Shown here: piece by piece, positions 6,279-56,393 of the stretch | Position numbering within the stretch: the first letter of the stretch is position 1 | Layout of the letters: each line of letters opens with the position of its first letter | Sequence record: PZ379075.1 | From: a phage | Reading direction: 5' to 3' (one strand) | DNA length: 64,000 nt | Notes under the pieces: generated by a model | The model's input: only the letters and a program-made list of their open reading frames with translations | The model's database searches: none | Told to the model about the DNA's origin: nothing | Made by a program: the position numbers and the translations under genes

Positions 6279-6722
6279 GTGGCTAAATCTAAAATCAGCA
6301 TGAAGGGCGGGCGTTGTTTTGCTATCTCTGAACTAGAGAAAGAGAAACCGAAGGCAACTAATCACGTTAGTAAGCGTAGTTTAAAACGCCGTGCTGCAAA
6401 GGCTGAGGCTGAATCCCATGTTCCTTCCAGTGTGGCAAAACGTGTAGGCCATCGTGTCCATCGTGCTGATGCGTTGTTGTTAGCTGATCATAAACGTTCT
6501 TTGTTACAGAGCGGGGGCGCTAAAACAGAAGAAGAGAAGAAGTTAGAAATCTTCTGTAATGGTCGCACCCGTGGTAAACAGAAGTTTAAGGGTAGCACGA
6601 AAGACCCTCAGGCATTCCCTAAGACAAGCCAGTGTGCACCTGATGTTTTCTACGCAGATAGTAAACACAAGTGGGGCGTTGAGAAATACATTGACCCCAT
6701 CAAAGAGGCAAGGGTTAAGTAG
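6279..6722 (+). CDS. hypothetical highly basic protein (147 aa), possibly nucleic-acid binding
   Basis: Lys/Arg-rich ORF; non-ATG (GTG) start in track, real start uncertain. Confidence 0.45.
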   Translation: MAKSKISMKGGRCFAISELEKEKPKATNHVSKRSLKRRAAKAEAESHVPSSVAKRVGHRVHRADALLLADHKRSLLQSGGAKTEEEKKLEIFCNGRTRGKQKFKGSTKDPQAFPKTSQCAPDVFYADSKHKWGVEKYIDPIKEARVK

Positions 6723-11273: not shown

Positions 11274-11349
11274 GCGCTCTTAGCTCAATGGATAGAGCAG
11301 TAGCCTTCTAAGCTATTGGTTACAGGTTCGAGTCCTGTAGGGCGCACCA
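11274..11349 (+). tRNA. tRNA-Arg (anticodon TCT)
   Basis: Hand-folded cloverleaf: acceptor GCGCTCT/AGGGCGC, D-stem GCTC/GAGC, anticodon loop CTTCTAA with TCT at 11307-11309, T-arm ACAGG-TTCGAGT-CCTGT, discriminator A, encoded CCA. Confidence 0.85.
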
Positions 11350-12629: not shown

Positions 12630-13293
12630 GACTGAAGAATTTTTAAAGTGGTTTGGTGATACCTTCAAAGAGTATCTATTCTCTCCAGAAGACTTTGAAG
12701 AACTGAAAACCTACACTTGGTTGGCTTGGAGAGATAGCCGACGAGAGATGAATAAGTAATATCGTGAAGGATTCTTACGAGAGTCCTTTGAGATAGGACT
12801 TCAGATCTCCTATCAAACTAACATTCATGTAACTAGCCCATAAGGGCGTTACCCTTTAATAACCCAGCCCACTAAGGGGGCGGGAGTTTAGTGCTGGATT
12901 AGCATAACGCTTATTCCTACAAAGGCAACCGATTGTTAGGTCTTACATGCAATATTAATTAATAGGATAAGGGAGGATTCGTCCCCTCCCCCTATTCATA
13001 AACTATTAGGAGAGTACATTAGCTGATTAGCTGTGGAAGGTAGGCCGATATCTACAGCGTGGCCCAGAGCTAGTGTACTCCCCAATAACTTTAGGGTAAA
13101 TGTGGAACAACCTTTTAATTACAGGTATAGCTTATGGGACTCAGTAATGCAGAGTCTACGGTAAAGCAGTCGCCCGTGGTCGAATGACCGTATGCCCATT
13201 GGATGCATTCCTTTGGTGATGGCTAGGGAGTCCGAGCGTAGGTTCGAATCCTACACCTGTAACCAAATTGAATAATAGCTAATTGGAGGATGT
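12630..13293 (+). other. ORF-poor structured region with a tRNA-like 3' module (T-arm GTAGG-TTCGAAT-CCTAC, acceptor, CCA ending at 13265)
   Basis: Canonical T-loop and CCA at 13238-13265 but no clean 76-90 nt cloverleaf found; several hairpins (e.g. GGGAGG...CCTCCC at about 12971-12995). Confidence 0.3.
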
Positions 13294-13605
13294 ATGAAAG
13301 CACGAAGAACTATATGGACTCCGATGCAGATTGAAAATCTTCGGAGACTAATCAAAGAGTACTCGGTTCAAGAAGTTGCTCAGATTATGAATGTAACGGA
13401 GAATGCAGTTAACGCAGCTTGTACTAAATTCGGAATATCAAGAGCTTCAATCCGAGTTAAATGGTCTGAAGAAGAAGACCAGTTCCTTATCCGTAATGCT
13501 GGGTTCATGTCTATTCAGAGAATGGCTGACATGCTCGGTAGAAGTTATGCTGCTGTACAGAACAGAGCATGTATGCACCTTAACATTAGCCTCAAACTTA
13601 AATAG
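13294..13605 (+). CDS. putative helix-turn-helix DNA-binding protein (103 aa)
   Basis: Two HTH-like segments (VQEVAQIMNVTENAVNAA and SIQRMADMLGRSYAAVQNRA). Confidence 0.45.
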   Translation: MKARRTIWTPMQIENLRRLIKEYSVQEVAQIMNVTENAVNAACTKFGISRASIRVKWSEEEDQFLIRNAGFMSIQRMADMLGRSYAAVQNRACMHLNISLKLK

Positions 13606-16057: not shown

Positions 16058-17257
16058 ATGTTTCCAGTAACATTAGAAGATACTGAAGGTAATATTTTAA
16101 CAGTCAACCCTCCTTGTTATGGGTTCCTTCAGCTTCGCAACTATAACGGTGGCGTTGATGAAGACGATGAAGAGTATGATGACTACTTCGACCCTAACAT
16201 GTATGAGGCAACTCATGGATGGAATATGCACGTTCGAGTGTGGCATGAAGAAGCTAACGTTCGTAGTGCTGATGGGGAAGAGTTCCTGTTAAGCCGAGAG
16301 ATGGATATGTGTAAAATCAAGCATATCTGGAACTCTGGAACTCATATGAAGATGTTAGGTTTTAGACGTTGGCGTGATGAAAAGCATGTAGCTGAAGCTT
16401 TAAGTTGGTGTTCGTATGAAGATGAAGACACGCCCCCTAAGAACAACATCGAACGTTGGAACGACAAAAACCCTGAGCATCGAACCACACCTCGTGCTGT
16501 ACTGGAAGCTATGGAAGCATTTGTGGACAAAGATCGTCCCTCCTGTTTACGCTGGCACGATAAAGGTTTTATGGGGGTAGCAACTGAGAATATCCCTGCT
16601 GATCGTTGTCTGTTCTATTTGATGTTAGACCGAACCTTCTATTGTGAAGATGAAGAGAGTCAAGTTGAAACCTTCCTCCATAAATGGTTGGTTGAAGGCT
16701 GGACAATCCTTCAGGCTTATGTTTACTCACGAATGGTTAGCACTTACACTAACCTCTTGGGAGAAAAGAAAGCAACTCTGGTTGGTAACGATTGGGATGC
16801 TTGTATCTTCCCAGCGTCGCTATTTACAGTCGGCATGGCTGATAAATACGCTGAAGCATTTCAAGTGCCTTGGCGTCAACAGTCATATAGAGATGGATGC
16901 GGTCATTTCCGTGATGAAGACTTTAAGTGGATTCATTACGAGAATGATGAAACAGCAGAATTACGAGTTAACAACTCAATGTTCTTGCCAGTGATGCACC
17001 CCGATCTAGTAAAAGACGGGTCAGAGACACTTAAAGGTGATAATCTTTTGGTTAACTTTACCCGTCGCGTGTCTAAAAATGAGAAAACAGCTAACAGGTT
17101 AATCTACGGCATTCGTGCCGAGGCTAAAGACCTGTTCAACATCTACAACATCATTCAGCGATTTAGTAGTGGAACTCTGGACCAAAGTTCGGAGTATTCA
17201 GTGATTCCGTCCTCTGAGTGGGATGGTATTATGAGCGGATTATTTTTAGGAAAATAA
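16058..17257 (+). CDS. hypothetical acidic protein (399 aa), first gene of putative amidoligase cassette
   Basis: Long ORF; no motif recognised; linked to cassette only by position. Confidence 0.55.
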   Translation: MFPVTLEDTEGNILTVNPPCYGFLQLRNYNGGVDEDDEEYDDYFDPNMYEATHGWNMHVRVWHEEANVRSADGEEFLLSREMDMCKIKHIWNSGTHMKMLGFRRWRDEKHVAEALSWCSYEDEDTPPKNNIERWNDKNPEHRTTPRAVLEAMEAFVDKDRPSCLRWHDKGFMGVATENIPADRCLFYLMLDRTFYCEDEESQVETFLHKWLVEGWTILQAYVYSRMVSTYTNLLGEKKATLVGNDWDACIFPASLFTVGMADKYAEAFQVPWRQQSYRDGCGHFRDEDFKWIHYENDETAELRVNNSMFLPVMHPDLVKDGSETLKGDNLLVNFTRRVSKNEKTANRLIYGIRAEAKDLFNIYNIIQRFSSGTLDQSSEYSVIPSSEWDGIMSGLFLGK

Positions 17258-17267
17258 AAGGTTAGTT

Positions 17268-18239
17268 ATGTCAATCTCCACAACGATCGTACCTCTTAAT
17301 CTTCAACAGGATTTAGGGGAACAGAAGTTCTTAGGTCGTGGGTGCTTCGGTATCCACAACTACATGCAAGGTCAAGTCGTATATGATGTTAATGACGAAT
17401 GTGTAATGGAAGATGGGCGCCATAAACGCTTCAACCGTGACATTAACTTGCAATTGGAGATGTTGAATTACTGGACCCACTCTTTTCATGGTCATGTTCC
17501 ATCTGATATTGAAAAGAACTTGATTGAAACAGCAGACATTATGAATTCTATGTCTTGCTATCGTGATGTATTTACTATCACTTCAGCGAACAGTGTTGCT
17601 GTCAATCTTCGTGAGCATCCAGCAGATCAGATCTTCACAGGACTTATGCTCTTCCGTAGTATTCTGGAAGGGCAATATCGTGGAATGGATTTCCTAGCAG
17701 AAGGAATTGAAGACAGGGAAGAGTGGCTGAAGCGTAAACGCATCGGCATCGCTCTAGTGTTAGCTGGGTTGGGTCGTGACTTCTTCGGTGGGTGGTCTCA
17801 ACGAGGAAGAGCCAATGGGAGTAGCGAGAGCACCTCTATTGTTATTAACAACAATATGTCAGCAGCAGCTTTCCTTCCTTTGGTTGTAGACTCTGATGAA
17901 TATACGAAGCAAGTATGGGTTCAAAACCCCTTCGGTGTTGGCGACAATGAGAATGGTTATGTTCGTAACCACAACCAAGATGCCTTACGAAGATTTGCTC
18001 GTGCTAAAGATCAAGACCCAGACGAGTATGAAACAATGTCAGAGTGGTTAAGACTCTGGTCCAACTGTTATGGTCACAAACGTGAAGCAATAGACGACAA
18101 GTTGGGAAACATTACGGTACAAAACTTTACATCCCGACTGATTCAAAGAACTGGAGCAGATTCCGGTCTTACTCTTGAAGAAGTTGGTAACACAATCTCA
18201 TCTCTCTTTTCTGAACTAGTGGAGTATTACAATGACTAA
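17268..18239 (+). CDS. hypothetical protein (323 aa) in amidoligase cassette
   Basis: Long ORF; no motif recognised. Confidence 0.55.
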   Translation: MSISTTIVPLNLQQDLGEQKFLGRGCFGIHNYMQGQVVYDVNDECVMEDGRHKRFNRDINLQLEMLNYWTHSFHGHVPSDIEKNLIETADIMNSMSCYRDVFTITSANSVAVNLREHPADQIFTGLMLFRSILEGQYRGMDFLAEGIEDREEWLKRKRIGIALVLAGLGRDFFGGWSQRGRANGSSESTSIVINNNMSAAAFLPLVVDSDEYTKQVWVQNPFGVGDNENGYVRNHNQDALRRFARAKDQDPDEYETMSEWLRLWSNCYGHKREAIDDKLGNITVQNFTSRLIQRTGADSGLTLEEVGNTISSLFSELVEYYND

Positions 18240-27998: not shown

Positions 27999-29312
27999 AT
28001 GATTGTTATCCCGATTAACCAAATTGAAGATAAGGTTGCTCAACAACCTGATATCACTGTTGGTCGTCACTTCATTGAACAATTGATTAACAACAACTTG
28101 ATTCCAGATGGTATCTGTCCCATCATTACTGGTGGGGCTGTTCGTGATGCTGTCCTTAATAACATAGCTCCACATGACATTGATATCTTTATTGTCAGAG
28201 GACAAACACCAAGAACTCAAAACACTTTCATCCCAACTGATCGTTGGCAAGAGCTTGGACGGGAGATTGAAAGTAATGTGAAGGAATGGCTAGAGTCACA
28301 AGATATTGAATATGCATCACTTCTTGCTGAAGCTACAAACGAATCCTATGCTGGGGGTTCTCAATTAACATTCACTGATATTATTGAGTTTCAGTGGAAT
28401 GGGGTTCGTATCCAATTCATGTTTAATTATCCTACTTCTATTGAAGAGGTATTGGATAATTTTCCTATGATGTGCCGTGGTGCGATGACTCTTGACAACT
28501 TATTCATGACTTCTCACGGATATTTGGCTATGACTTCCCCTTGTCCAGTGGTTGTCTATAGTCGTGAAATCAGGTATGTTCACAAGAAGTGGCCTAACTC
28601 ACAAGTGTTGAGATTTTCCTCTCCAGCAGTTGCGCATCAATACATGGCCCAAACTCGATATCTTCCCACACCTCAGCCAGTTAGTCATCTAGTCAATGGA
28701 TTAGGTCAGGTTTCTCTTATTGAAGATACAACAAGTGCTCTATATTGTGTTAACCAAGACATGAGTCGATTCTTTGGAATCCCTTATGAAGAGATTCAGA
28801 TTATGTCTAGTCTTCACGGTTCTGGTCAGATTCATGCGTATTGGTCTGAGGGGTTGACAAATTTAACGACTAACACGGGTGGTGATCTGCTTGGTCGAGA
28901 AGAGGAACCTAACCGACACAATGCAATTGAAGGGGTGTTTGTAGCCCCTGCAATGCGTCGAGCACAAGAGTCACGAAGAGAAAGCCCTACTCGTAGAACA
29001 TCTTTTGAAGAAGCTCTTGGTATTACAAGTGATTCTATGGAGCGATGGATGGCTAGACCCTCTCGTGGTCGACCAAACGGCTTAACTGTTAGCGCACGTC
29101 AGTTCTCTGGTCAGGGTTTCGCTGTTGGTGATATCAACGCCCCTTCTCGTGTTATCTGGACTGATGAAGGTATGGAACAAGATTTGGGAGATAGTCTCGC
29201 TGATCGCTTTATTGCTAACAACCCTGAAGTATTAGAACCTCAAACCCGTACAGTTCGGTTTGCCGATGAAGCGGGTCGTGGAATCTCTTTTGACATGGAA
29301 ACAAATAACTAA
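27999..29312 (+). CDS. tRNA nucleotidyltransferase / poly(A) polymerase-family protein (CCA-adding-enzyme-like)
   Basis: Head-domain motif ITGGAVRDAVL...HDIDIFI; ATG 27999 used rather than track start 27942. Confidence 0.6.
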   Translation: MIVIPINQIEDKVAQQPDITVGRHFIEQLINNNLIPDGICPIITGGAVRDAVLNNIAPHDIDIFIVRGQTPRTQNTFIPTDRWQELGREIESNVKEWLESQDIEYASLLAEATNESYAGGSQLTFTDIIEFQWNGVRIQFMFNYPTSIEEVLDNFPMMCRGAMTLDNLFMTSHGYLAMTSPCPVVVYSREIRYVHKKWPNSQVLRFSSPAVAHQYMAQTRYLPTPQPVSHLVNGLGQVSLIEDTTSALYCVNQDMSRFFGIPYEEIQIMSSLHGSGQIHAYWSEGLTNLTTNTGGDLLGREEEPNRHNAIEGVFVAPAMRRAQESRRESPTRRTSFEEALGITSDSMERWMARPSRGRPNGLTVSARQFSGQGFAVGDINAPSRVIWTDEGMEQDLGDSLADRFIANNPEVLEPQTRTVRFADEAGRGISFDMETNN

Positions 29313-29321
29313 GGAATAAGA

Positions 29322-29855
29322 ATGAGTTTACTAGGAAGTATTGAACTGCATGATGTAATTGACAATGGCTATCTGGATGCGGAGCATAAGTATGTTAACG
29401 CTGCTAGTGTGGATATCCGTATTGGTGATACTATCCTTGTTGAAGAACAGGCTGATGGCATCGTTGATATTGATGCGAAAGAGAATCTTCAGTGGAAGGA
29501 AGTAAAGATTCCTGAAGAGGGTTTGGTTATCACTCCGGGTCAGTTCTTCTTGGCTCACTCTATGGAGGAGTTTAATCTTCCAGATAACATCTCAAGTCTG
29601 TTTGTTCTGCGTTCGTCTATGGCTCGTTGTGGTTTGAACCACCTTCACGCCGGTTGGGCAGATGCAGGATTTAATAGTAGTAAGCTGACATTTGAATTCC
29701 ATAACGTAACCAAGCACCACAGCTTACGAGTTCGTGCTGGTATGCGTGTTGGTCAGATGGTTATGTTTGAGCACTCTCATGCAGGGGAACATTCCTACGC
29801 AGTGAAGGGTCGTTATAATAACTCTGAAGGTGTGGTTGCATCTAAAGGTGTGTAA
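29322..29855 (+). CDS. dcd: dCTP deaminase
   Basis: RSSMARCGL...HAGWADAG...GMRVGQMVMF closely parallels bacterial Dcd motifs. Confidence 0.7.
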   Translation: MSLLGSIELHDVIDNGYLDAEHKYVNAASVDIRIGDTILVEEQADGIVDIDAKENLQWKEVKIPEEGLVITPGQFFLAHSMEEFNLPDNISSLFVLRSSMARCGLNHLHAGWADAGFNSSKLTFEFHNVTKHHSLRVRAGMRVGQMVMFEHSHAGEHSYAVKGRYNNSEGVVASKGV

Positions 29856-30053
29856 ATGAAAAAGTGGATTGTTCGTGTACATGATAACACGACTGGAGAG
29901 TTAGTAGCTGTAGATTTTGTTAAGACTCGAGAGCACGCACGTAGGGTCAAAAATCAATACAAGTCTACTTTTAGACTTAATAAGGTTACACTAGGAAAAG
30001 CTATCGTGAATAGTGAAGGTGCTTTTTGTGTCAACAGTAAGGTTTATTACTAA
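29856..30053 (+). CDS. small paralogous protein A (ends KVYY)
   Basis: One of three tandem about 66-aa paralogues with conserved C-terminal K-V-x-Y-Y. Confidence 0.5.
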   Translation: MKKWIVRVHDNTTGELVAVDFVKTREHARRVKNQYKSTFRLNKVTLGKAIVNSEGAFCVNSKVYY

Positions 30054-30262
30054 TGAGACCAATCACTATGAGAAAATTCTGGTTAGCGAAGATTAAGTGG
30101 GCATCAGGTGGTATGACTATGACTGCACTCCCTACTCGTCAACAAGCTCGAGATTTTAAAAAGACTATGCTTACTGGTGACGTGGTTAATAGTATCAGCA
30201 TCCATAAGGCCAAGGAGTATTCTTCTGGTCGTGTTTATATCAGCGGAAAGGTACATTACTAA
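30053..30262 (+). CDS. small paralogous protein B (ends KVHY)
   Basis: See above; coupled starts. Confidence 0.5.
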   Translation: MRPITMRKFWLAKIKWASGGMTMTALPTRQQARDFKKTMLTGDVVNSISIHKAKEYSSGRVYISGKVHY

Positions 30263-30471
30263 TGAAAAAGATGTGGGCTATTCATGTTGTTTGGGATCTT
30301 GAGCAACACATGAGAAAAGATAACATCAAATTGTTTGACACTCGCAAAGAGGCTCGTATTGCTAAGAAACAGTTGAAGACTCTGGGCACAATAGTAAAAA
30401 GCGCTGACATACATCGCTGGTATGAAGACCCTAACACTGGTTCTTTTATGTCTAAAGTAATTTACTACTGA
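30262..30471 (+). CDS. small paralogous protein C (ends KVIYY)
   Basis: See above. Confidence 0.5.
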   Translation: MKKMWAIHVVWDLEQHMRKDNIKLFDTRKEARIAKKQLKTLGTIVKSADIHRWYEDPNTGSFMSKVIYY

Positions 30472-31968: not shown

Positions 31969-32625
31969 ATGAATGAACAACTACAAGCAACATTAATCGA
32001 AGCTATGGGAAGTGATCGTAGCGTAGTAAACGCAGCTCGAGTTTCCTTTGGCGTAACCCGTGAAGGTGATTTAAATGAACGTGATGAACGTCTCATCAAC
32101 TTCCTCGCAAGAGAGAAGCATGTTACCCCATTCCGACACCCGCAAGTCAGTTTCCGATGCAAAGCACCTATCGCAATTGCAAGACAGTTGGGCAAGCATC
32201 AGGTTGGATTCTCGTGGAACGAAATGTCCCGGCGGTATAAAGATGGAGCAGTTGAAGTCTTCATCCCTAAAGAGATTTTTGCGAGACCTTCGGACCTCCA
32301 TGCAGGTTCAGGGATTCAACTCATCGACGGAGAGCGAGCTGAAGCATTAATGTTAATTAACGATGCATATGAAGCTTCTCTAGCAGCATATGACAAGTTG
32401 ATTGAGTTTATTGCACCAGAGCAAGCTCGATTTGTTCTTCCTCAGGGGATGATCACTGAGTGGGTGTGGACCGGTTCTTTGTATGGCTGGTTTGAGTTGT
32501 GTCGTCAGCGACTCTCCTCTCACGCTCAATATGAAGTTCGAGTGTTTGCTAAATCTGTAGACGAAGAGATGTCTAAGATCTACCCAATCTCGTGGGCAGC
32601 TCTGAAGAAAACATTGGAGATTTAA
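31969..32625 (+). CDS. thyX: flavin-dependent thymidylate synthase ThyX
   Basis: ARVSFG, FRHPQVSFR and SWNEMSRRY resemble ThyX RHR and SxRY motifs. Confidence 0.65.
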   Translation: MNEQLQATLIEAMGSDRSVVNAARVSFGVTREGDLNERDERLINFLAREKHVTPFRHPQVSFRCKAPIAIARQLGKHQVGFSWNEMSRRYKDGAVEVFIPKEIFARPSDLHAGSGIQLIDGERAEALMLINDAYEASLAAYDKLIEFIAPEQARFVLPQGMITEWVWTGSLYGWFELCRQRLSSHAQYEVRVFAKSVDEEMSKIYPISWAALKKTLEI

Positions 32626-36491: not shown

Positions 36492-38336
36492 GTGAGCAAC
36501 CCGGACGCTCTTCCATTTTTGACAGAGATGACTGTCGCTGATATAATCTCTAAGCAAGCAAAGCACGGAGTGAGTTTCAACCGAAGAAATGCTCGGTGGT
36601 ATGTTCACCTCCTTAAAGAGATTATTGTTAATATTGACAGAGAGTTGATTCCTCTCTTACCTAAGATGAGATTAGATGGCTCTACTTACATGAAGCCATT
36701 TAAGAAGTCTGGAGCTTTACAGAAGTGGCCTCAAGCCTATTGTGATAGGGTTGGGCTGAAAAGAGAAGATATTGGTGGAGCTTTCACCTGCGTCGAATAC
36801 GTAGACTTTGACCCATCGAAAGATGCACGAGTTAAAGAAGCTCTTATGGATGAGGGTTTTCTTCCTCCAGAGTTTAACGTATCTAAGAAGCCTTGGAATA
36901 CTTTCGAAATTAAGAAAGATATGCGAAAGTATGGAACATACCAAGCATGGTATACTGCTTGGATGCGAGGTAATGCTAAGCAAAAGCAGACAGCCGAGAT
37001 GGTTGACGCTGATATTAAGAAGTTCTTAGAAAAGCATTTCAGGTTTAAAACTAAGAACTATATGAAGGCTTACGTATTTGGTTTGGGATTAAACCCGAAT
37101 CGCCGTAATCCTGTAACGTTTGATGAGATTAAGAAAGCACTAGCCACATCAAACAAGTGGCCTACAGCTCCTACAAACCTCGAGGAGACTCTTGAAGAAG
37201 GGTTAGGGGGTGAGCTAGGGAGTGTCGGAAGTTTGCTTAAGAGACGCGTTGTAGCGGCTCACAGGCTAGGTCTTATCAGTGGACTCATAGCAAAGGAACG
37301 CGAAGATGGTAAACTTTCGGCAGAAGCTAACAGCTGCGCTACGCCGACTTTTCGATTCAAACATCGTATCGTGGTTAATATTCCCTCCCGTGGTCTGTTT
37401 GGTCACGAGTGTCGCAGTTTGTTTGAGTCTGACTATAACTCAGACAGTGATCACTCTCGTCCTTTCGTTATTACTAACGTTGTTCCTGATGGTTGTTATA
37501 TACGAAAAGGTACTAACGTAATTTACGAGAAAGGTAAGCCGGGGAAGAAAGATAAACCTATAGGTGCTTACAAATATTACATACCCGCTGGTAAAGAAGT
37601 ATTCTTAGGGTATGATGGTTCTGGACTTGAACTTCGTATGCTCGCTCACTACCTCATTAAAGAGTGTAGGGATATGCTTGCTGAGGCAATTGAAGAGAAC
37701 AACCCAGCTAAGAAAGCTCTGGCAGAACGTGGTTTAGCTTCTGCTATTATGTATCGTGATATTCTCCTTGAAGGTGATATCCACTCCCACAACCAGAAAC
37801 TTGCTGGTCTTCCTACTCGTGACAACGCTAAGACGTTTATCTACGCATTCAACTATGGTGCTGGTGATGCTAAGCTTGGTTCAATTGTAGGTGGTGGGGC
37901 TGACGAAGGTTCAGTGATGCGAGCACGTTTCTTAGCAGAGAACCCATGTATTGCAATCCTCATTGATCGTATGACAGAGAAAGCTGCTCAAGGATACTTG
38001 ATTGGAGTTGATGGTCGTAAGATTACAATGAGACGGGATGCCACTGGTAAGGTTATGGTTCATAAAGCCCTTAACACACTCCTGCAATGTGCTGGTGCTG
38101 TTGTTATGAAATATGCTATGATGTTCCTTAACAAGTGGATTGAGAAAGATAAGGTTCGTTGTGCTAAGGTAATTGATATGCACGATGAAGGTCAATTCTC
38201 AGTAAACCGTAATGATGTACAGAAACTCAAAGAGCACACCGAGCTTTGTGTTAAGAAAGCTGGCGAGTATCTGAATATGGAATGTCCTCTGGCATCTGAT
38301 TGTCAGATTGGACTTAACTGGATGCATACACACTAA
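36492..38336 (+). CDS. DNA polymerase, family A polymerase domain (exonuclease encoded separately at 27440-27997)
   Basis: Motif A DGSGLELRMLAHY, motif B RDNAKTFIYAFNYGAG, motif C MHDEGQF; GTG start after AAAGGAG. Confidence 0.8.
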   Translation: MSNPDALPFLTEMTVADIISKQAKHGVSFNRRNARWYVHLLKEIIVNIDRELIPLLPKMRLDGSTYMKPFKKSGALQKWPQAYCDRVGLKREDIGGAFTCVEYVDFDPSKDARVKEALMDEGFLPPEFNVSKKPWNTFEIKKDMRKYGTYQAWYTAWMRGNAKQKQTAEMVDADIKKFLEKHFRFKTKNYMKAYVFGLGLNPNRRNPVTFDEIKKALATSNKWPTAPTNLEETLEEGLGGELGSVGSLLKRRVVAAHRLGLISGLIAKEREDGKLSAEANSCATPTFRFKHRIVVNIPSRGLFGHECRSLFESDYNSDSDHSRPFVITNVVPDGCYIRKGTNVIYEKGKPGKKDKPIGAYKYYIPAGKEVFLGYDGSGLELRMLAHYLIKECRDMLAEAIEENNPAKKALAERGLASAIMYRDILLEGDIHSHNQKLAGLPTRDNAKTFIYAFNYGAGDAKLGSIVGGGADEGSVMRARFLAENPCIAILIDRMTEKAAQGYLIGVDGRKITMRRDATGKVMVHKALNTLLQCAGAVVMKYAMMFLNKWIEKDKVRCAKVIDMHDEGQFSVNRNDVQKLKEHTELCVKKAGEYLNMECPLASDCQIGLNWMHTH

Positions 38337-55361: not shown

Positions 55362-56393
55362 TTATAGTCCAGCAAAAACCTTAGCTGCATTTATTACAGG
55401 AACTGATAAATTAACTACAGTATCAGCTCCTAGGTCGTAATTTTGATCCCACTGAAACAGATATCTTCCATAGCCAGTTCCTATGCTAGAGCCACTCATT
55501 GTGTGAGATCTCATTTGCTGATATCTCCACCCACTACCTCGACCTTTTATTGCACCTATTCCAGAAGTAAGAGGTATCATAGGATATGCCATACCAGTGT
55601 TGCCCCCTCCCGAACCAATAAAATTGTCTACAGTGAAAGGTGTTCTATTAGTAGAGAAGACACATTGAGTTGTCCCAGGAGAATATATGTTTAACCCACC
55701 ATTATGCTCAGGAACACCAGCTCCGTTACAGAACACAGCGACTCTAACAAAGACAGAACCACCTTCGTTAGTGTTACCATTGACATAAGGCCTATTCTGA
55801 TAGACTCGAATAACCCTATCATCAGATGTGTAAGATAAACCGATCCCTCCATCAGACCAATTAGCAAACACAACAGCATTGGTCATATTGAACCCACCAA
55901 TATTTGGTATCTGAAGGGAGTTGTTTATGGTCCCCTGCCAAGCCCAAATACATTGACCAACAACCCCACTATCAGAGATTGAGAAATAATCTGCTGTATT
56001 TGAGAAAGTGATTCCATAGTTTCTGTCAGCTCTAGGCCATATTTGGTATACGTTGAACCCACAGTCAAATAGTGGGTTACTACCGGGATTCTGGTTCAGA
56101 GTCACCCTAAAAGATGAGTTATTTTCTACATAGATGTTATTTACACAATAAACATCAGGGACTAAGTTAGGAGGGACTTCCCATTGCCAGCATAGAGAAC
56201 CAGTAGGAACAATAACTATCTGACCGCTACCATCCCATCCACTAATAGGGAAAGATCTCCCTGCTCCGTTAAAGTTAAAACTCCCTCTTATACTATTTTT
56301 GAACTGAGGGAAAGTGCTTCCACTGTCTATAAAAAGAGGGGCTGGTGTAGCTGGTCCCGGCCCTACTGGTTGTGTCCAAATTCCATATGCCAT
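55362..56393 (-). CDS. virion structural protein (343 aa)
   Basis: ORF in structural block; Gly/Asn-rich, beta-rich appearance. Confidence 0.5.
   Translation of the reverse strand: MAYGIWTQPVGPGPATPAPLFIDSGSTFPQFKNSIRGSFNFNGAGRSFPISGWDGSGQIVIVPTGSLCWQWEVPPNLVPDVYCVNNIYVENNSSFRVTLNQNPGSNPLFDCGFNVYQIWPRADRNYGITFSNTADYFSISDSGVVGQCIWAWQGTINNSLQIPNIGGFNMTNAVVFANWSDGGIGLSYTSDDRVIRVYQNRPYVNGNTNEGGSVFVRVAVFCNGAGVPEHNGGLNIYSPGTTQCVFSTNRTPFTVDNFIGSGGGNTGMAYPMIPLTSGIGAIKGRGSGWRYQQMRSHTMSGSSIGTGYGRYLFQWDQNYDLGADTVVNLSVPVINAAKVFAGL

Follow-up and report, generated by a model that had tools for sequence, protein, structure and literature searches.

What does a phage nucleotidyltransferase (NTase) that carries a CCA-adding-like label do in the replication region of its genome, and to which acceptor would it add a nucleotide? 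The question is raised by an open reading frame (ORF) at 27999-29312 in a 64,000-nt stretch of phage DNA (PZ379075.1), here called the window, to which all coordinates refer. The window comes from a phiEco32-like podophage: the 3 kb around the NTase gene share 99.8% identity with Shigella phage ShigP1 and 99.3% with Escherichia phage SkaterBoy_Bas90, and about 100 such phages (Kuravirus and relatives, subfamily Gordonclarkvirinae) match the same 3 kb. Present in about 98 phage records, the gene is the orthologue of phiEco32 gp73, SU10 CDS74 and Bas90_0070; the NTase is 99.3-99.8% identical in FS2B, Bas90 and myPSH1131, and one peptide of the orthologue was detected by mass spectrometry of an SU10 preparation (PMC4281155). 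Curated relatives annotate it as "nucleotidyltransferase", between "DNA polymerase exonuclease subunit" and "dCTP deaminase" and downstream of primase/helicase, and the annotation on record for the gene reads "nucleotidyltransferase / class II CCA-adding-like". As the relatives' annotation is already public, the observation is not new at the level of annotation. What appears to be new is the rejection of a CCA-adding function at the level of motifs, the remote tie to Gad2 and to helicase-adjacent NTases, and the standing of this gene as the fastest-evolving large core gene.

The gene encodes a real nucleotidyltransferase, core to the phiEco32-like coliphages and probably active. From its fold, motifs, synteny, evolutionary rate and distribution we infer that the enzyme would act on an acceptor other than tRNA, either in counter-defence linked to replication or in protection of the genome, a reading to which we give a probability of roughly 0.45, slightly short of even odds.

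Catalytic domain and motifs

The NTase starts at the ATG at 27999, and Met1 is invariant in the family. The features of the gene are as follows.

27999-29312 (+), NTase coding sequence, 437 amino acids plus stop, from the ORF list; full-length match to PHROG 12715 (E 7.6e-244)
27999-28853 (+), ordered catalytic domain, residues 1-285, class II-type head and partial neck
28131-28148 (+), first half of motif A, G45 G46 A V R49 D50, triphosphate-binding turn and helix; G45, G46, R49 and D50 invariant in 26 members
28176-28190 (+), second half of motif A, D60-I-D62-I-F64, two metal-binding carboxylates; D60, D62 and F64 invariant, aligned with class II DxD
28404-28424 (+), strand V-R-I-Q139-F-M-F with invariant Q139, in the hairpin where class II enzymes have E-V-T-T-F-R
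28461-28481 (+), F155-P156-M-M-C159-R-G161, at the position of class II motif B (RRDFTINA) and of Gad2 FDFTVCMG, placed by hhalign of the family with Gad2 and of Gad2 with class II
28563-28595 (+), first-neck-helix motif R189-[DE]190-x-x-Y193-V-x-K-K197-W-P, family-specific; Y193 and K197 invariant, position 190 always D or E
28866-29153 (+), predicted disordered linker, residues 290-385, rich in Ser, Arg, Gly and Asn; predicted local distance difference test (pLDDT) 29-50
29154-29309 (+), small C-terminal module, residues 386-437, beta-rich, two hairpins and a helix; pLDDT 50-70, modest confidence

The ORF noted in the first-pass annotation for its GGAVRD...DIDI signature is real, with GGAVRD at residues 45-50 and DIDIF at 60-64. 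AlphaFold2 gave a good model of residues 1-252 (pLDDT 80, predicted template modelling score 0.78); the full-length model is ordered to about residue 285, falls below a pLDDT of 50 at residues 290-295 and 304-385, and ends in a module of about 50 amino acids. This module is conserved within Kuravirus (P0013), has no family or PDB match, and is possibly a docking element. The linker and tail cannot be aligned between genera, and tail length varies (proteins of 274-482 amino acids). An alignment of 26 members, each sharing 20-34% identity with the window protein, shows the following residues to be invariant: M1, G45, G46, R49, D50, D60, D62, F64, Y117, I128, Q139, P156, Y193 and K197. The lack of catalytic carboxylates had been named in advance as the observation that would speak against an NTase; both carboxylates of the DxD are present and invariant on the alignment. 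E130, which looked promising as a third catalytic carboxylate in three sequences, varies as E, Q, D, N or S across the family and was rejected.

The head is of class II type, and the G45-D50 segment aligns with GGAVRD of class II enzymes. The remainder of the protein does not follow the class. The motif B of CCA-adding enzymes, RRD(F/L)T(I/M)NA, which recognizes the ribose 2'-OH, is not present; by an equivalence that is transitive through Gad2 FDFTVCMG, its place is taken by N-F155-P156-M-M-C-R-G, with an invariant Pro at the position of the Asp (P156 in 26/26 members; F155 and C159 only in closer subsets). Motif D, the EDxxR that serves as the CTP/ATP template, is likewise missing: the ordered domain contains no [ED]DxxR at all, and its first neck helix has R-[DE]-x-x-Y-x-x-K-K-x-P instead. 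In saturation selections of CCA enzymes the D and R of EDxxR were irreplaceable (PMC11784652). The alpha-helical body and tail that bind the tRNA elbow are absent from the full-length AlphaFold2 model, and no significant match to curated CCA family models (Pfam gathering score, NCBIfam cca) was found. Thus, four of the five testable hallmarks of a CCA enzyme are missing, and motif A (GGxVRD...DxD) alone is kept. Compared with class II tRNA nucleotidyltransferases and poly(A) polymerase I (PAP I) (PolyA_pol; PDB 1miv, 3h37, 1ou5, 3aql), the likeness is confined to about 25-35 residues at motif A; the signatures of the flexible loop, motif C and motif E are not detectable, and RRD, EDxxR and the helical body and tail are lacking. 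The enzyme type proposed in the first-pass annotation therefore holds for a Pol-beta NTase with a class II CCA/poly(A)-polymerase-type head and lacks support as regards CCA addition, for want of motif B, EDxxR and body/tail.

Homology searches agree with the motifs. The hidden Markov model (HMM) search that had been proposed for PolyA_pol and CCA-adding families returned PolyA_pol at 18.8 bits, below the gathering cut-off of 23, as the sole and sub-threshold Pfam match, and neither NCBIfam (including cca) nor PADLOC models matched. The Pfam set scanned lacks PF26128, since even verified Gad2 goes unmatched, so these Pfam scans are uninformative on Gad2 membership. Searches of PDB sequences with phmmer and profiles gave nothing significant, CCA enzymes appearing with about 26-35 residues around motif A at E of about 0.8; with single E. 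coli Cca and PcnB sequences, hhalign aligned motif A alone. In PHROG, the NTase matched 12715 ("nucleotidyltransferase") end to end and phrog_1614 at E 1.6e-7. An exhaustive HMMER profile search of 1.84 billion representatives found 41 proteins at E<=1e-3 (31 at <=1e-10), of 72-482 amino acids, the full-length family members having 274-482 and many only 274-320; no canonical CCA enzyme was among the 41. A look-up by exact sequence returned no entry for the window protein. The family is small and occurs only on phage genomes and phage-like contigs. The window protein has the marks of its Kuravirus-type branch (PHROG 12715), namely the full-length match, the locus between exonuclease and dCTP deaminase (DCD), and invariant Y117, Q139, P156, Y193 and K197. 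No match to MenT/AbiEii or CD-NTase defence models was found, nor were these the closest fold; the MenT and AbiEii toxin NTases resemble it in being small Pol-beta enzymes that act without tRNA-measuring domains. Its structural neighbours in BFVD include dozens of phage "PolyA_pol head" NTases of 170-230 amino acids.

Remote relatives among phage nucleotidyltransferases

A precomputed Pfam match to PF26128, 'Gad2 (weak)', is found in 30 of 44 close homologues of the NTase. SPbeta-like phages encode Gad2 as their second anti-Gabija protein; it has 400 amino acids and a predicted nucleotidyltransferase domain (bioRxiv 10.1101/2023.05.01.538930). To compare the families, hhalign was run with a Gad2 profile of nine homologues (Supplementary Table 10 of the same preprint) and a class II profile of five sequences, taken from E. 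coli genes and PDB alignments, with the following results.

NTase family with Gad2: probability 90%, E 1.5e-6, 129 columns, head and first neck helix
Gad2 with the five-sequence class II profile: probability 83.5%, E 8.3e-6, 160 columns
NTase family with class II: probability 87.5%, E 3.6e-6, 25 columns, motif A only

In the alignment of Gad2 with class II, FDFTVCMG stands opposite RRDFTINA and YPxxSxLRVxKY opposite EDPxRxLRxxRF. The R189-K197 helix of the NTase aligns with Gad2 LRVxKYxxKGY, itself aligned with class II LRxxRF...GF. At the position of Q139, whose register against the class II Glu is presumed, Gad2 homologues have Q, and one has E. The Gad2 homologues match phrog_18122, 27100, 4400 and also 1614, the last being matched by both Gad2 and the window NTase, and small "bridge" NTases match PHROGs 1614, 4400, 18122 and 12715 together.

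Gad2 (PF26128; SPbetaL7, Brevibacillus laterosporus prophage) resembles the NTase in being phage-borne, in its class II-derived domain and in the Q of the hairpin strand and the R..Y..K helix. It differs in keeping FDFT (the D of RRD), in having GG(T/A)ITS for GGAVRD, in its structured C-terminal half of about 200 amino acids, which is not alignable with that of the NTase, and in its setting, an anti-defence locus of temperate SPbeta-like phages (PHROGs 18122, 27100 and 4400 versus 12715). Of the Gad2 motif set (GG[TA]ITS, NDxDxYF, FDFT[VI]CMG, LRVxKYxxKGY), the NTase shares the DxD, the Q strand and a portion of the R..Y..K helix, and nothing more. As judged from these alignments, the NTase and Gad2 appear to share a superfamily, without membership of the NTase in the Gad2 family, and the link is a remote one. 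Papers linking Kuravirus or phiEco32-like phages with Gabija were not found in the literature searched.

A second set of relatives consists of the podophage 'PolyA_pol head' NTases (phrog_1614-type; DU_RP_I gp11, LKD16 ORF16). These share GGA[LA]RD...DxD, a Q-containing strand, an F-D-x motif and a KYP-type helix with the NTase, as well as a niche just downstream of the primase/helicase and upstream of the DNA polymerase. They differ in size (170-230 amino acids, without the long tail), in keeping FD[LY], and in a hhalign E of only 1.4e-5. The podophages concerned are unrelated ones: in Ralstonia T7-like phage DU_RP_I, gp11 (E 1.4e-5, 144 columns) lies between the primase and DNA polymerase I genes, and in Pseudomonas phage LKD16 (phiKMV-like) ORF16 directly follows the helicase gene.

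Replication block, evolutionary rate and proposed role

The neighbours of the NTase gene form a conserved block:

25656-27446 (+), DnaB-type primase/helicase, first gene of the block (ORF list, relatives' annotation)
27440-27997 (+), 3'-5' exonuclease subunit of a split family A DNA polymerase (annotation in Bas90, phiEco32 and ECBP2; Pfam DNA_pol_A_exo1)
29322-29855 (+), DCD, always directly after the NTase

The order gamma-glutamyl cyclotransferase ... primase/helicase - exonuclease - NTase - DCD holds in each of the seven lineages examined, of which three are named genera and four are metagenomic, and the exonuclease-NTase pair also lies on a shorter 2.8-kb contig. The exonuclease stop codon (TAA, 27995-27997) is separated by 1 nt from the NTase ATG, and in distant lineages the two genes have 4-nt overlaps, a spacing that implies translational coupling. 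No promoter or terminator of its own is evident near the NTase gene, and matches to the phage sigma consensus TAATGTATA occur at chance level. In phiEco32, the cluster for replication and nucleotide metabolism belongs to the middle class (PMC8948821).

The NTase stands apart from this block in its rate of change. Between lineages it is 32-40% identical, whereas the helicase is 78-95%, the exonuclease 62-86% and DCD 77-96% identical. Compared with ECBP2, it is the least conserved of the 31 shared ORFs of at least 150 amino acids (32%, against a median of about 81%). Relative to phiEco32, its nonsynonymous rate (dN) is 0.071, 10-70 times the 0.001-0.007 of its neighbours; the ratio to the synonymous rate (dN/dS) stands at 0.21 for the whole gene, 0.14 for the catalytic domain and 0.50 for residues 251-437. 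The NTase is under purifying selection and yet shows very fast turnover. The next most diverged large ORFs relative to ECBP2 are 16058-17257 (+, 42%), 55362-56393 (-, 46%) and 17268-18239 (+, 51%), most genes being 65-97% identical. The ORFs at 16058-17257 and 17268-18239 encode hypothetical proteins just upstream of an amidoligase cluster and could be further host-interaction genes.

Taken together, these features suggest the following course of events. The NTase would derive from the class II (CCA-adding/poly(A) polymerase) lineage, having kept the head, first neck helices and motif A and lost RRD, which senses the ribose, EDxxR, which serves as template for the base, and the body and tail that measure tRNA. 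In their place it carries family-specific invariant residues (Y117, Q139, P156, Y193 and K197) and a long tail, predicted to be disordered, with a small module at its end. Related small NTases in three podophage groups appear in the same place, downstream of the replicative primase/helicase and upstream of the DNA polymerase, and the NTase is probably co-transcribed and translationally coupled with replication genes. It would transfer a nucleotide from an NTP or dNTP, untemplated, onto a non-tRNA acceptor, which might be the 3' end of a nucleic acid, where phage DNA is replicating or linear, or else a host or defence protein. Such transfer may shield phage replication from host immunity, and the conflict would drive the extreme sequence turnover. 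The Gordonclarkvirinae have been described as "remarkably resistant" to restriction-modification systems and are unusually resistant to other tested defences too, without a known mechanism (PMC11990801). We favor the counter-defence reading as the most economical because of the Gad2 analogy and this unexplained resistance.

Several points weigh against the counter-defence reading. Anti-defence genes are usually accessory and located in islands of early genes; the NTase gene, by contrast, is a core gene with a fixed place in the replication module and belongs to the pre-replicative transcription class. The window protein scores just 4 bits against the nine-sequence Gad2 HMM, which cannot tell it from noise among the window ORFs, and on this account the Gad2 link is rated remote; in the other direction the NTase family HMM does about equally well with both, giving 7-18 bits for Gad2 and 4-20 bits for class II. 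The FDFT of Gad2 (FPMM in the NTase) and the structured Gad2 C-terminal half are absent, and the 26-member alignment yielded no third conserved carboxylate. As of February 2026 Gad2 had no known mechanism (PMC12904381), and a function cannot for that reason be transferred from it to the NTase with confidence. The rate itself is open to another explanation, as fast divergence could reflect relaxed constraint or cassette-like recombination. The synonymous rate (dS) relative to phiEco32 is 0.57 in the first 250 codons (27999-28750), 0.12 in the remainder (28751-29312) and 0.08-0.19 in flanking genes, which suggests a recombination breakpoint or allele import inside the NTase gene.

Other features of the surrounding region deserve mention. 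The stand-alone exonuclease subunit of 185 amino acids (27440-27997) lies about 8.5 kb upstream of the polymerase gene (~36528-38336, +), making this a split family A polymerase, and between the two lie numerous small ORFs together with the genes for the NTase, DCD, thioredoxin, ThyX, PhoH and a Dps/ferritin-like protein. A conserved cluster that immediately precedes the replication block, ~18232-25436 (+), encodes a COOH-NH2 ligase, an amidoligase, a class II glutamine amidotransferase (annotated GFAT), an ATP-grasp RimK-like 'S6 glutaminyl transferase' and gamma-glutamyl cyclotransferase; the cluster is a peptide- or metabolite-modifying pathway, and the same genes are present in distant lineages. 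After DCD, 29856-30471 (+) holds three tandem ORFs of 65, 69 and 69 amino acids, mutual paralogues at 22-27% identity that share MKK-W ... TR--AR--K ... Y-COOH; their detected ECBP2 counterparts are only 42-50% identical.

Alternative functions and significance

The place of the gene raises the possibility of a replication accessory unrelated to immunity, either acting on primer or DNA 3' ends or using its tail to dock on the split polymerase, exonuclease or helicase. Translational coupling with the exonuclease subunit, a post-helicase position conserved in three podophage groups and core-gene status are all consistent with this, and the disordered tail with its terminal module resembles the docking tails of replication proteins, for which the tails of T7 gp2.5 and gp4 provide the analogy. 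A housekeeping partner would, however, be expected to evolve like its partners, and the NTase is the fastest-evolving large gene in a block whose helicase, exonuclease and DCD are highly conserved. We consider this explanation unlikely.

We would also call it unlikely that the NTase takes part with the adjacent DCD in covalent modification of DNA or nucleotides, for example by activating or transferring a nucleotide-linked group, to give a restriction-resistant genome. The authors of the BASEL-2 paper themselves pointed to the NTase and dCTP deaminase as potential hints of some as yet unknown modification of the DNA (PMC11990801), a suggestion made because these phages resist restriction-modification. 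The strict adjacency of DCD within a module of nucleotide metabolism and replication favors the idea, as does resistance to restriction-modification in the presence of EcoRI (9) and EcoRV (28) sites in the window. DCD is ordinary here, however, as it would supply dUMP to the phage ThyX encoded 2 kb downstream (~31969-32625), with thioredoxin nearby; that DCD feeds ThyX argues against a dU genome, and a PBS1-like dU-DNA is unlikely with ThyX encoded. Conservation of DCD at 77-99% beside 32-40% for the NTase indicates that the pair is not co-evolving like pathway partners, and scans with Pfam, NCBIfam and PADLOC showed no similarity to known DNA-hypermodification enzymes. Part of the resistance has another source.

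From its base composition the whole window should contain 1075 palindromes of 6 bp, and 640 are present; 16 of the 64 are absent, including those of BamHI, PstI, KpnI, SacI, SphI and NcoI, and CCWGG occurs once against about 70 expected. The EcoRI and EcoRV sites counted above are among those that remain. This strong avoidance of palindromes and CCWGG partly explains the published restriction resistance without modification.

A poly(A)-polymerase-like activity, in which the NTase would tail RNA and mark host (or phage) transcripts for decay as a means of host takeover or regulation, would suit a class II-type head. PAP I keeps RRD, EDxxR and a large RNA-binding C-terminal region, and the NTase lacks all three. 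There is nothing related to RNA in the genomic context, and in these phages the genes for host takeover are grouped in the early region (PMC8948821). We regard RNA tailing as rather unlikely.

The explanation offered in the first-pass annotation, a CCA- or A-adding tRNA NTase that repairs or matures the 3' ends of the phage tRNA-Arg and of host tRNAs and so counters tRNA-targeting nucleases, is improbable. The tRNA-Arg(UCU) gene on which it leaned was confirmed at 11274-11349 by ARAGORN and by Rfam (72.4 bits). Its 3' end reads GGGCGCA-CCA, so that CCA is encoded. Among the Arg codons of 55 large window ORFs, 20.4% are AGA, and the published explanation of this tRNA is codon supply (AGA 20.2% versus 3.6% in E. 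coli; PMC9965538); the high usage of AGA explains its presence. The tRNA gene is 17 kb from the NTase in another part of the genome, and as both are core genes their co-occurrence is uninformative. A related NTase is found in DU_RP_I, whose genome has no tRNA gene, and the host has its own Cca. The enzyme itself gives the same answer: RRD is replaced by F-P with its invariant Pro, EDxxR and the body/tail are absent, residues 290-385 are predicted to be disordered, the exhaustive HMMER search found no genuine CCA enzyme, and PDB matches (E ~0.8) cover only the motif A region. With motif B, motif D and body/tail absent and the tRNA encoding its own CCA, repair or maturation of tRNA 3' ends is unsupported.

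The second tRNA element invoked, a tRNA-like module near 13265, does contain a T-arm-like hairpin (GTAGGTTCGAATCCTAC) followed by ...ACCA; its standing as a functional tRNA did not hold up. Rfam returned nothing at E<=10 and ARAGORN nothing at its default, -ps and 90% thresholds, only the 80% threshold giving a poor 90-nt 'tRNA-Cys' at 13172-13261. Its fold is no better than that of shuffled sequence (z -0.66), and the segment occurs in only 13 related phage records, beside endonuclease or regulator ORFs, as opposed to about 98 records with the NTase. On these grounds (Rfam, ARAGORN, shuffling and distribution) a functional second tRNA was rejected; the segment is an accessory remnant and not a partner of the NTase.

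In the remnant, the hairpin GTAGGTTCGAATCCTAC lies at ~13229-13245 and ACCA at ~13261-13264, with a good T-arm and a poor acceptor stem. It is situated within a 665-nt ORF-free stretch, the adjacent small ORF (13294-13605) is annotated as an endonuclease or transcriptional regulator in relatives, and two of the 13 records are of Klebsiella phages. Insertion of a mobile element or homing endonuclease into what was once a tRNA gene may have left this scar. ARAGORN at 90% also called Asn-GTT and Ser-ACT at 6474-6564 (+) and 29621-29715 (-), which are taken as false positives, being absent at default settings and from Rfam; one such relaxed-threshold 'tRNA' sits inside the dCTP deaminase gene on the opposite strand.

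Finally, a decaying, non-catalytic remnant that merely fills the operon would account for the very low cross-genus identity, the disordered, variable tail and the lack of an identified third carboxylate, and is very hard to credit given a reading frame intact in every lineage, invariance of GG-RD-DxD and five other residues across the family, a catalytic-domain dN/dS of 0.14, a confidently predicted structure and the detected peptide.

Since 2014 the label "CCA-adding enzyme-like" has accompanied this gene in about 100 phage genomes, and it invites the idea of tRNA repair, for which the sequence offers no support. Among small phage enzymes of this type, Gad2 is the one for which a phenotype has been demonstrated, the inhibition of Gabija. 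A further-reaching form of the counter-defence reading, which we put forward tentatively and hold to be doubtful, is that the NTase is the founding core-genome member of a Gad2-like counter-defence class set within the podophage replication module and nucleotidylates, at the replication fork or the genome termini, exposed DNA 3' ends or a defence or repair protein, blinding end-sensing or nuclease-based immunity (Gabija, RecBCD-linked, restriction). If true, this would explain the broad resistance of the Gordonclarkvirinae to defence and restriction and would point to the mechanism of Gad2. The phiEco32-like phages are common and are therapeutic candidates, and the NTase is among very few enzymatic candidates for their resistance. 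Bas90, a 99%-identical relative that infects K-12, makes the question directly testable, and the answer could show how Gad2-type enzymes work.

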